Source: Candidatus Saccharimonadota bacterium (GTDB taxonomy: Bacteria; Patescibacteriota; Gracilibacteria; UBA1369; 2-02-FULL-48-14). From it: a stretch of DNA of 32,000 bases. Positions 8,523 to 10,838 of the stretch are shown here, piece after piece (position 1 is the first letter of the stretch; the number at the start of each line of letters is the position of its first letter). The translations under genes and the position numbers were made by a program. The notes beneath the pieces are model-generated. The model was given only the letters and a program-made list of their open reading frames with translations, searched no databases and was not told the origin of the DNA. The stretch is taken from positions 1,170,001 through 1,202,000 of the forward strand of contig JBAZVE010000001.1 in assembly GCA_041661045.1 (NCBI GenBank), given 5' to 3'.

Positions 8523-10136
8523 CTAAGAAAGTTGCTTCGTCATGTAGGCGCCTTCGAGTTCGTAGCCCCATTTGCGGTAGTAGTTGCGGGTGCCGACGCC
8601 GGCGATGATGGCGATTTTTTTGTAGCCGGCGGCTTTGGAAATTTCTTCGGCTTTTGCGATCATGCGACGGCCGAGGCCGCCGTGTTGTGAGGCGGATTTT
8701 GTGGATTTGCCTACGCGGACTTGAGCACCGTAAGTGTGGACTTCCCGCACCAAAGCGGCTCCTTCGAGCTCGGGAATGAAGTGGGGTTTGCCTTGCAAAG
8801 AATAGGAAGAGAAGCGGAGCCGTAAGAGTGAACACAGTTTATCTTCTCTGCCTAGCAGACCCTTTGGGTCCGCTTGATTGAAGCTGATGAAAAACTCCTT
8901 CCCTTCGGAGGCTTCGTATTCCAAAACTCGAAGTTCCGTTTCGTCGGGATCAAAAACATCGCCTTTGATTTCACGGCAGCGAATGCAGTGACAGACAATG
9001 CCTTCTTTTTTCATTTTATCTTGAAGAATTTGGCGCATATTGGTCATTTGACTGCCCTCCAAAATGGACTCTCCTGGAATATCGCGGAAGAGCCGTTCTA
9101 TACGGACATATTCTGGAATGTGTCGCTTCATCTCAATTAAAATATCCATCAAAACTTCATCGGAATAACTCTCATAACGGCCTTCCTTCCACCACTGTTC
9201 AAGCTCTGCGTAAGGCGTCACCACGCAGGGGTAGATTTTAAGTTGGTCGGCCTTAAAGTTTGGGTTTTGGAAAAATTCTCGAACCATCCATTTGTCTTTT
9301 TCCGGCGTGCTCCCCGGTAAATTGGGCATGAGGTGAACAGCAACTTTGAGCCCTGCATCCTTAAGGAGTTTGATGGCAGCAATCTGCTGAGCCACCGTTT
9401 CGCCGCGTTTATTGAGTTCCAAAATTTCATCATCGATCTGCTGAATGCCAATTTGTACTTTGGTGCAGCCGAGCTTCAGCATGTTTTTAATTTCATCTTC
9501 GGTGATGTGGTCCGGGCGGGTCTCCAAACTGAGACCGATGATGCGATGCTGGGCGGACTCATTGATGTGTTGAGCTTCTTTTAAGCCTCGTCCTTGCTGT
9601 GTGTTGCAGGCGTTGAATAGAGCACGAACGAAATCGCTTTGATATCGGCGGTTGTAGGCTGAAAAAGTTCCGCCCAATACAATCATTTCAATTTTATCGG
9701 TTTCGTGACCTTGACGAGTGAGGCTATCGAGCCGGGTTTTCACCTGGTCGCGGGGGTGAAAATCATCGAGAACCGCGCGCATGGCCCCCGGCTCGTTGGA
9801 AAGATAAGATTTGGGCATGCCGGGTTCTGTTGGGCAAAATACGCACTTCCCCGGGCAAGGATACGGTTTAGTGAGCACCGTGATGACGCTCACTCCGGAA
9901 AGGGTGCGAACTTTTCTTTTGCGCAGCAAGCGTTGCAGCGCCGGGTCACCCTTCCATCCCTCTTTCAACATTTCTTCATAAGCTTTTTGTAACTTAAAGT
10001 TGCTCAACAGATCAATCTCATGATCTCTGGCGTACGCTTTTTTAAGTTTGTGCAGCTCGTCCTCCGTTTGGATCTTCAGATTTGAAGCTTGTTGAATCAG
10101 TGCTTTTTGTATATCCTCGGAAGAGAGTATTTTCAT
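8523..10136 (-). CDS. elp3: Elp3-type radical-SAM / GNAT acetyltransferase (tRNA U34 carboxymethylation enzyme homologue)
   Basis: 537 aa. Radical-SAM cluster motif CPGKCVFCP, TIM-barrel-like core, and a C-terminal GNAT block (QHGGLGRRMIAKAEEISKAAGYKKIAIIAGVGTRNYYRKWGYE). Confidence 0.88.
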   Translation of the reverse strand: MKILSSEDIQKALIQQASNLKIQTEDELHKLKKAYARDHEIDLLSNFKLQKAYEEMLKEGWKGDPALQRLLRKRKVRTLSGVSVITVLTKPYPCPGKCVFCPTEPGMPKSYLSNEPGAMRAVLDDFHPRDQVKTRLDSLTRQGHETDKIEMIVLGGTFSAYNRRYQSDFVRALFNACNTQQGRGLKEAQHINESAQHRIIGLSLETRPDHITEDEIKNMLKLGCTKVQIGIQQIDDEILELNKRGETVAQQIAAIKLLKDAGLKVAVHLMPNLPGSTPEKDKWMVREFFQNPNFKADQLKIYPCVVTPYAELEQWWKEGRYESYSDEVLMDILIEMKRHIPEYVRIERLFRDIPGESILEGSQMTNMRQILQDKMKKEGIVCHCIRCREIKGDVFDPDETELRVLEYEASEGKEFFISFNQADPKGLLGREDKLCSLLRLRFSSYSLQGKPHFIPELEGAALVREVHTYGAQVRVGKSTKSASQHGGLGRRMIAKAEEISKAAGYKKIAIIAGVGTRNYYRKWGYELEGAYMTKQLS

Positions 10137-10139
10137 ATT

Positions 10140-10838
10140 ATGAAGCCTAAAGGAATCCAGAAGAAGGTTAGGGACGACTATAATACCATTGCAAAAGAAT
10201 TTTCGGAAACAAGACAGACGCTTTGGAAGGATTTTGATTTTTTTACACCTTATTTGAAGCGGGATTTTTCAGTTTTAGATCTGGGCTGTGGGAATGGGAG
10301 GCTCCTTGGTTTTTTAAAGGAGAACGGGGTCGAAGGGTATATTGGCCTCGATCAATCGGTGGAGCTTTTAAAGGAGGCTAAAAAGAACTGGCCCGGGAAG
10401 AAGTTCTTAGAGGCCGACATGAGCTCTCCCCTTCCGACTAAAAAAAAGTTCGATGCGCTTTTTGTCATCGCGGCGTTTCATCACCTTCCTCCGCAAGATC
10501 ACGAGAAAACTCTTCGGATGTGGAAAGAGCATCTCAAGCCCGGCGGCTTCCTTTTTATGATCAATTGGAACCTTCATCAAGTTCGATTTTTGCCCTTGTT
10601 TCTGCGTAGTTTGCTCTTCCCCAACTATGGATTTCGTGGAGTTTTAGTCCCTTGGAAAGATAGCGTTCGCCGCTATTATTTTGCCTTCACCCGGGCTCGA
10701 CTTGCACGACTCTTTAAGCGAAGCGGATATTCCGTTTTATTCAACGACTACACGAATGAAGGTAAGTCTGCTACCCTTTTCACAGGAAAAAACATCCTAA
10801 CGATTGCACAAAATGGACTTGATGGGCGTTCACATTGA
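10140..10838 (+). CDS. Class I SAM-dependent methyltransferase, Trm9/ALKBH8-like
   Basis: 232 aa from the ATG at 10140; the track start at 10089 is a TTG. Blocks YNTIAKEFSETRQTLW, VLDLGCGNGR, VIAAFHHL, FMINWNLHQ and VLVPW parallel the Trm9/ALKBH8 methyltransferase blocks as I recall them. The general methyltransferase call is firm; the Trm9 subfamily call is moderate. Confidence 0.65.
   Translation: MKPKGIQKKVRDDYNTIAKEFSETRQTLWKDFDFFTPYLKRDFSVLDLGCGNGRLLGFLKENGVEGYIGLDQSVELLKEAKKNWPGKKFLEADMSSPLPTKKKFDALFVIAAFHHLPPQDHEKTLRMWKEHLKPGGFLFMINWNLHQVRFLPLFLRSLLFPNYGFRGVLVPWKDSVRRYYFAFTRARLARLFKRSGYSVLFNDYTNEGKSATLFTGKNILTIAQNGLDGRSH

Follow-up and report, generated by a model that had tools for sequence, protein, structure and literature searches.

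The window analysed here is a stretch of 32,000 nt from a Candidatus Saccharimonadota bacterium (contig JBAZVE010000001.1, positions 1,170,001 to 1,202,000). Within it lie two divergently oriented genes encoding an Elp3 protein and a Trm9-like class I S-adenosylmethionine (SAM)-dependent methyltransferase, which are predicted to form 5-carboxymethyluridine (cm5U) and 5-methoxycarbonylmethyluridine (mcm5U) respectively at the wobble uridine, U34, of tRNA (Table 1). An earlier reading, made from the letters of the DNA and referred to below as the sequence-only reading, had described a head-to-head pair of genes for products of 537 and 232 aa and quoted peptide blocks from both. All of these blocks are present: CPGKCVFCP in the Elp3 open reading frame (ORF), and YNTIAKEFSETRQTLW, VLDLGCGNG, AAFHHL, INWNLHQ and VLVPW in the 232-aa protein. 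The methyltransferase ORF extends from 10089 to 10838 on the plus strand, and its first ATG, at 10140, gives the 232-aa product. Direct reading of the junction, ...ttttCATattATGaag..., places the two start codons 3 nt apart, and an independent gene call on a second assembly of the same organism gives the identical two products with the identical gap.

With a spacer of this length at the junction (window 10134-10142), the ribosome binding site (RBS) and promoter of each gene must sit within the 5' coding sequence of the other. Transcripts of the two genes probably share an antisense overlap at the 5' end and form a single expression unit, and we infer that the near-zero spacing couples the expression of the two genes. 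A consensus promoter scan of the junction, which is uninformative for this phylum, returned nothing.

Table 1. Features of the divergent gene pair and of the ORFs next to it, in window positions.
Feature	Positions	Strand	Size and description
elp3	8523..10136	minus	537 aa; radical-SAM + GNAT/KAT, predicted tRNA U34 carboxymethyl (cm5U) synthase
Trm9-like class I SAM methyltransferase	10140..10838	plus	232 aa; predicted cm5U34 to mcm5U34
Spacer between divergent start codons	10137..10139		3 nt, CAT att ATG
ORF directly downstream of elp3	5042..8491	minus	1149 aa; no Pfam match
WecG/TagA/CpsF-family glycosyltransferase gene	10804..11586	plus	
Predicted membrane protein	11561..11821	minus	86 aa; no family match

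On profile and motif evidence the 537-aa product is a full-length member of the Elp3 family, which agrees with its earlier assignment from the radical-SAM motif. It scores 537.4 bits against the ELP3 model TIGR01211 (cut-off 350), with residues 15-536 placed on model positions 4-522 of 522, and its best PDB matches are the archaeal MinElp3 (6iaz, 2.4e-119) and DmcElp3 from Dehalococcoides mccartyi (5l7j, 1.9e-112); eukaryotic Elp3 also aligns. The cysteine triad of the Fe-S cluster, CPGKCVFCP, aligns with CPGKCIYCP in DmcElp3 and CPhGKCIFCP in MinElp3, the zinc-cysteine linker CHCIRCRE with CRCIRCRE of DmcElp3, and the acetyl-CoA motif QHGGLGRRM with QHRGLGRKL of the same protein. The linker zinc cysteines of Elp3 are kept in bacteria and archaea (PMC6367351). 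In the Pfam scan both Radical_SAM and Radical_SAM_C exceed their cut-offs, and the acetyltransferase model has no match. The protein also carries an N-terminal extension of about 72 aa with a basic patch, RLLRKRKVR, which falls within the span of the ELP3 family model and is lacking from DmcElp3; the extended N-terminus of archaeal Elp3 is important for substrate recognition (PMC6367351).

The NCBIfam product name attached to TIGR01211 is 'tRNA uridine(34) 5-carboxymethylaminomethyl modification radical SAM/GNAT enzyme'. This name describes the product of MnmE/MnmG, 5-carboxymethylaminomethyluridine (cmnm5U), and not the cm5U of Elp3, and the mislabel spreads to all bacterial Elp3 annotations.

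The closest homologues were found in metagenome-assembled genomes (MAGs) of Peribacteria/Gracilibacteria, within the Patescibacteria or Candidate Phyla Radiation (CPR). When a family profile of the methyltransferase built from 40 homologues was searched against the PDB, the best match was Yarrowia Trm9 (5cm2_Z; 1.5e-24, 90 bits), in which nearly the whole chain (residues 2-187) aligned with profile positions 22-208. The runners-up matched over part of their length, one at 71.5 bits in two stretches of a two-domain enzyme and one at 69 bits over profile positions 34-147 only. Comparison of the same profile with an alignment of 20 fungal Trm9 proteins in hhalign gave a probability of 99.9 and an E-value of 3.1e-37 over 201 columns, pairing residues 7-227 of the window protein with 22-231 of a 234-aa Trm9. 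With a hidden Markov model (HMM) of fungal Trm9, each of the 81 members of the family present in the loci surveyed below scored 55-113 bits, and the next-best ORF among 4488 reached 25 bits. By whole-length profile comparison the window protein would be classed as Trm9-type rather than with the other class I methyltransferases. The AlphaFold2 model (pLDDT 95.2) has a Rossmann-type strand order.

The sequence-only reading had likened the peptide blocks to those of both Trm9 and human ALKBH8. The likeness is upheld by the profile searches, in which Yarrowia Trm9 is the best solved relative and the fungal proteins align end to end, and by the retention of essential residues described below. The RRM and AlkB domains of ALKBH8 are absent, Pfam finding methyltransferase families only in the 232-aa protein, so the protein is Trm9-type. 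At the level of the family, the identity of both Elp3 and the Trm9-like methyltransferase is established by these sequence comparisons.

Mutational data are available for yeast Trm9 (ScTrm9), in which alanine mutants of R29, D72, H116, W145, W168, R241, Y243 and N271 lose function, and in which mutants of H24, K31, R122, E148 and D270 retain wild-type zymocin sensitivity (Létoquart et al., PMC4678810). All eight essential residues are found in the window protein, and their conservation was counted over 191 bacterial family members. Four are kept in every member (R29 as window R25, H116 as H115, W145 as W143 and N271 as N218), and the ribose-binding acidic residue D72 (window D71) in 190/191, making five of the eight invariant or nearly so; the remaining three are W168 (W172, 177/191), R241 (R178, 178/191) and Y243 (Y180, 158/191). 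The five positions that are dispensable in ScTrm9 are highly variable among the same members. Constraint within the family thus follows the active site of Trm9 as mapped by experiment, and this predicted site takes in the residues that, in models, hold the cm5U carboxylate and read the uracil ring.

Linkage of the two genes was surveyed with one genome per species. At least 554 relatives of the methyltransferase were found, and the best 80 loci, all from MAGs and numbered with the prefix L, were analysed. These are mostly labelled as Patescibacteria, including Peribacteria, Gracilibacteria, Peregrinibacteria, Falkowbacteria, Uhrbacteria, Komeilibacteria, Kuenenbacteria, Beckwithbacteria, Magasanikbacteria, Saccharibacteria and Parcubacteria. 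Elp3 is encoded directly upstream and divergently in 70/80 loci; six of the remaining ten are short of upstream DNA, so that 70 of the 74 informative loci have the pair and four are true exceptions. The orientation is divergent in every case. Conserved linkage, which the sequence-only reading had named as a check on the pairing, is thus confirmed. The claim in the same reading that bacterial Elp3 is rare holds for cultured bacteria, but not for Patescibacteria, in which the pair is widespread, and the pair is present in Dehalococcoidia too.

Clustering of all ORFs in the 80 loci found no other neighbour in more than 34 of them, which argues that the linkage is not residual synteny, and the adjacency persists across lineages in which the methyltransferases are only 35% identical and the other neighbours differ. 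The distance from start to start is within +/-20 nt in 37/71 pairs and several pairs share a CATG, leaving no intergenic room for a promoter or RBS, so that each mRNA would be antisense to the other at the 5' end. Start codons overlapping in a shared CATG (spacing -2) are seen close to position 10000 of the locus in several lineages, for example in L035, L038, L047, L049 and L070.

In eight loci an unrelated gene is inserted between Elp3 and the methyltransferase; as these insertions are mutually unrelated they are not considered part of the system. In three related loci (L024:8862-9935, L025:7470-8591 and L056:8632-9852) the insertion encodes a secreted repeat protein of about 360-400 aa with duplicated 'GEAWYVNP...RYYLGRP.DAF.IMR.LG.GIS' modules, and other loci carry different insertions at the same spot, that of L059 being a second class I methyltransferase.

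A search for a conserved third gene of the module gave no candidate; GlyA, WecG, GatB and FolD, which come next in frequency as neighbours, represent lineage-specific synteny. GlyA-like and FolD-like genes, in 34 and 28 loci, lie on the Elp3 strand, nearly always downstream by 0-3.5 kb, in non-Peribacteria CPR (L017-L080). Both enzymes make 5,10-methylene-tetrahydrofolate, the one-carbon donor of the MnmE/MnmG route and not of Elp3. Their proximity may reflect nothing more than synteny, or may point to one-carbon/SAM supply.

Seventeen of the MAG records are titled 'uncultured Gammaproteobacteria bacterium' (L019, L024-L026, L028, L037, L041, L046, L048, L054, L059, L064, L068, L072, L073, L076 and L079). 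In 13 of the 17 the Elp3 is 57-87% identical to Elp3 of Patescibacteria-labelled MAGs, and most are low in G+C. The titles of these third-party assemblies look wrong.

The same arrangement was found in a second phylum. The DmcElp3 sequence was rebuilt from the PDB alignment and its relatives were looked up, and in D. mccartyi a 224-aa class I methyltransferase is encoded divergently from Elp3 with a 43-nt spacer. Two other Dehalococcoidia have the same divergent pair, giving three of four informative loci overall, with one locus lacking the pair and one uninformative; the start-to-start spacers are 43-74 nt. These methyltransferases score 98-108 bits on the CPR family HMM and 68-71 bits on the fungal Trm9 HMM, and the key residues are kept. 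As the pair occurs in both CPR and Dehalococcoidia, the pairing characterises bacterial Elp3 in two phyla that are only distantly related.

Trm9 methylates cm5U to mcm5U. The two genes described here would together constitute a self-contained, divergently expressed module that modifies U34 by the route used in eukaryotes and archaea. In the first step Elp3, acting alone and not with Elp1, Elp2 and Elp4-6, would use its radical-SAM domain and acetyl-CoA to add a carboxymethyl group to C5 of U34, giving cm5U; in the second the Trm9-like methyltransferase would esterify the cm5U carboxyl with SAM to give mcm5U. If a 2-thiolation system is active as well, 5-methoxycarbonylmethyl-2-thiouridine (mcm5s2U) would be expected. 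A two-step module of this kind, from cm5U to mcm5U, is the reading that we consider likely, with both the product and the tRNA substrates being predictions. Such a two-enzyme module was also put forward in the sequence-only reading, and it now draws support from the identities of Elp3 and Trm9, the essential residues and the linkage in 70/74 loci. There is experimental precedent for each step, since archaeal MinElp3 makes cm5U alone (cited in PMC7663514), and mcm5U in Haloferax requires Trm9 and is made by Haloferax Trm9-Trm112 (PMC6144793). In Sulfolobus the Elp3 and Trm9 genes are clustered (PMC6144793).

Several observations weigh against such a pathway. The window methyltransferase lies at the weak end of its family on the fungal Trm9 HMM, at 55.8 bits. 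In single-sequence PDB searches the window protein matches Trm9 (5cm2_Z) at 5.6e-9, barely ahead of other methyltransferases, and for one homologue (P0053) Trm9 ranks 14th. Foldseek with the AlphaFold2 model places Trm9 at rank 3 among near-equal class I folds, below two uncharacterised methyltransferases. No Trm112 was found near any of the pairs, and the Trm9 proteins of eukaryotes and Haloferax need Trm112. Finally, bacterial carriers of Elp3 (Dehalococcoides) are without direct evidence of 5-carboxymethyluridine derivatives (xcm5U34) (PMC7663514). As the single-sequence and fold searches are ambiguous, it is the profiles and the functional residues that decide the question of Trm9 identity.

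The search for Trm112 covered the window and the 80 loci (1.33 Mb, consisting of the surroundings of the pairs), in which tblastn with E. coli YcaR found no YcaR-like gene (PF03966); a CxxC...CxxC scan of small ORFs gave no conserved zinc-knuckle ORF near the CPR pairs. Among the Trm112-contact positions, L90, F104 and D105 are kept, and the hydrophobic V59 and F78 of Yarrowia are replaced by polar or small residues, S44 and G66, here.

In Dehalococcoidia a conserved 70-75 aa zinc-ribbon protein (I/T-CPxC, 18 residues, CWKCR) is encoded at L084:4423-4650 (-), L085:4387-4605 (-) and L088:3005-3217 (-), on the same strand as the methyltransferase and a short way downstream of it, with a permease gene between the two in 2/3 loci. 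The cysteine pattern is close to [C/D]PX[C/D]X19-36CX2C, the signature quoted for short Trm112 proteins. As the protein has no Trm112 match in Pfam or the PDB, it is not named Trm112 here. Beside the CPR pairs it has no counterpart.

For the other expected components, tblastn with E. coli MnmE and MnmG over the 1.33 Mb of related loci gave generic GTPase-domain matches only; as about one chance match per gene is expected in that length, this search has no power. Genes for Elp1, Elp2 and Elp4-6 were not seen in the window, and no genome-wide search for them was made.

The alternative that survives best, though we consider it improbable, is that the Trm9-derived enzyme does work with Elp3 and the end product is not mcm5U. 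In that case mcm5U could be a transient intermediate on the way to 5-carbamoylmethyluridine (ncm5U) or another derivative, or the enzyme could methylate some other side chain that depends on Elp3. The trm9 mutants of yeast and Haloferax do not accumulate cm5U and contain ncm5U-type products (PMC3110198; PMC6144793), which indicates that the pathway branches. In ScTrm9 numbering, the equivalent of H115 is N in 18/191 family members and that of Y243 is V or I in 27, and these substitutions may mean altered chemistry in some lineages. On the other hand, the residues proposed to contact the cm5U carboxylate and the uracil ring (the equivalents of R29, H116, R241 and N271) are invariant or nearly so, and in the neighbour clustering of the 80 loci the pair has no conserved companion that could act further, for example an amidotransferase or AlkB hydroxylase.

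It is very unlikely that the methyltransferase is a generic class I enzyme, of the UbiE/MenG type or the CmoM/SmtA type that methylates uridine 5-oxyacetic acid (cmo5U), and that its adjacency to Elp3 is functionally meaningless. Such an enzyme would fit the Pfam results, which are generic only (Methyltransf_25 66 bits, Methyltransf_11 64 bits) and include Ubie_methyltran at 24.1 bits (cut-off 20.1) over profile positions 10-154 of 233; the weak NCBIfam matches to UbiE, CmoM and CmoB, with no model near its cut-off; and the two methyltransferases ranked over Trm9 by Foldseek. However, the scores on the specific models are far under the cut-offs, both for UbiE/MenG (TIGR01934, 28.2 bits vs 158; PRK00216, 23.6 vs 216) and for CmoM (NF008264, 16.8 vs 366), and the CmoM structure 8joz is 48th in the fold search. 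By these scores the protein does not belong with UbiE or SmtA/CmoM, the outcome that the sequence-only reading had set against its own proposal. In the alignments shown, other methyltransferases match the N-terminal Rossmann part only, while Trm9 matches through to the C-terminal PW, RYY and N motifs, and the adjacency to Elp3 survives divergence to 35% identity and changed neighbours and recurs in a second phylum. That the two proteins act elsewhere than on tRNA U34 (on a different RNA position or on a protein, as in the old 'histone acetyltransferase' reading of Elp3) is likewise very unlikely: it would sit with the absence of a tRNA gene or other tRNA-modification gene from the window and with the very weak in vitro activity of DmcElp3 (PMC7663514), but in Elp3 from bacteria, archaea and eukaryotes alike acetyl-CoA hydrolysis has to be triggered by tRNA (PMC6367351), and the residues that read the U34 ring in models of Trm9 (the N271 and H115 equivalents) are conserved.

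The remainder of the window encodes TyrRS, RecG, GatB, signal peptidase, Fmt, IleRS, PGK, RuvX, SSB and riboflavin synthase, together with several large proteins without a family match, and is the housekeeping set of a small genome; no tRNA genes or Rfam matches were found in it. One of the large orphans is the 1149-aa ORF that lies 31 nt past the Elp3 stop and has acidic low-complexity stretches and hydrophobic segments. On the other side, the methyltransferase gene shares 17-35 nt at its 3' end with the WecG-family gene, the extent varying with the start assigned to the latter. In the Peribacteria/Gracilibacteria lineage a WecG-family gene comes after the methyltransferase in 32 loci, which makes co-transcription probable, and it has no evident functional tie to tRNA. 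The 86-aa predicted membrane protein, between the WecG-family gene and gatB, is kept at the same position in 29 related loci.

Wobble modification of the mcm5U type is regarded as eukaryotic and, since 2018, also archaeal, and bacteria are taught to use MnmE/MnmG. A 2017 review stated that no bacterial homologues of Trm112-dependent methyltransferases were detectable (PMC5372719), a 2020 review of Elp3 places bacterial Elp3 in Dehalococcoides only and leaves Trm9 unmentioned (PMC7663514), and a 2026 paper says only that 'numerous bacteria' have Elp3. No published description of a bacterial Elp3-Trm9 pair was found in the literature, though the 2016 DmcElp3 paper may hold a remark on it. The chemistry, both enzyme families and the clustering of Elp3 and Trm9 in Sulfolobus were already known, and it is the occurrence in bacteria that appears to be new. 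The known pathway would thereby be extended to new lineages, in which Trm9 may work without a partner and the divergent genes are arranged unusually tightly, and bacteria with the pair probably make a tRNA modification that has so far been unreported in bacteria.

A conserved Trm9-like partner beside Elp3, present in more than 70 Patescibacteria genomes and in D. mccartyi, gives for the first time a genomic reason to suppose that Elp3 of bacteria supplies a complete pathway from cm5U to mcm5U. It turns the acknowledged question of whether bacterial Elp3 leads to xcm5U into a directly testable prediction in D. mccartyi, which is cultivable, and offers small stand-alone enzymes for biochemistry, including a Trm9 that may be Trm112-independent. 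From the distribution, wobble chemistry of the 'eukaryotic-type' would seem to be used by a very large radiation of bacteria, and this has a bearing on the age of the Elongator pathway. A bolder proposition, which we advance tentatively and consider rather doubtful as it stands, is that Patescibacteria as a whole and Dehalococcoidia have replaced MnmE/MnmG by a two-protein Elp3-Trm9 route, with no Trm112 or accessory Elongator subunits and with the genes locked into one bidirectional unit with touching or overlapping starts. The module would then be ancient and shared or exchanged between archaea and deep bacterial lineages, and not an archaeal or eukaryotic invention.

One of the closest known systems is eukaryotic Trm9 (yeast; Yarrowia 5CM2) acting after Elongator/Elp3, which has the same two steps and a single domain of about 230 aa that aligns end to end with the window protein. 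The window protein shares only about 27% identity with fungal Trm9, a nearby Trm112 was not found, S44 and G66 stand at the positions of Yarrowia V59 and F78, and the genes are head to head here. In human ALKBH8 the C-terminal methyltransferase domain is the Trm9 orthologue, and the window protein corresponds to that domain alone; JGI automatic annotation labels one family member (P0111) 'alkB family protein 8'.

The archaeal systems, Haloferax HVO_1032-Trm112 and the Sulfolobus solfataricus cluster, likewise combine a stand-alone Elp3 with a Trm9 orthologue, and in Sulfolobus the genes are also clustered. Like archaeal MinElp3, the CPR Elp3 has an N-terminal extension, and its match to MinElp3 scores slightly above that to DmcElp3. 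Archaeal Trm9 has been reported only in Sulfolobales and Halobacteriales (PMC5372719). The pair described here differs in having a bacterial host and in being spread broadly across Patescibacteria, and Haloferax Trm9 differs from a possibly independent enzyme in needing Trm112. DmcElp3 (PDB 5L7J) is also a bacterial stand-alone Elp3, with the same CPGKC..C Fe-S spacing and a divergent Trm9-like methyltransferase gene immediately upstream. It differs in lacking the N-terminal extension of about 72 aa, in the spacer (43-74 nt in Dehalococcoidia vs 3 nt) and in the zinc-ribbon gene downstream. MnmE/MnmG, which produce cmnm5U, fill the same role, the C5 (xm5U34) modification of tRNAs that read split codon boxes (PMC7663514), but their enzymes, cofactors and product are unrelated to those of the Elp3-Trm9 pathway.

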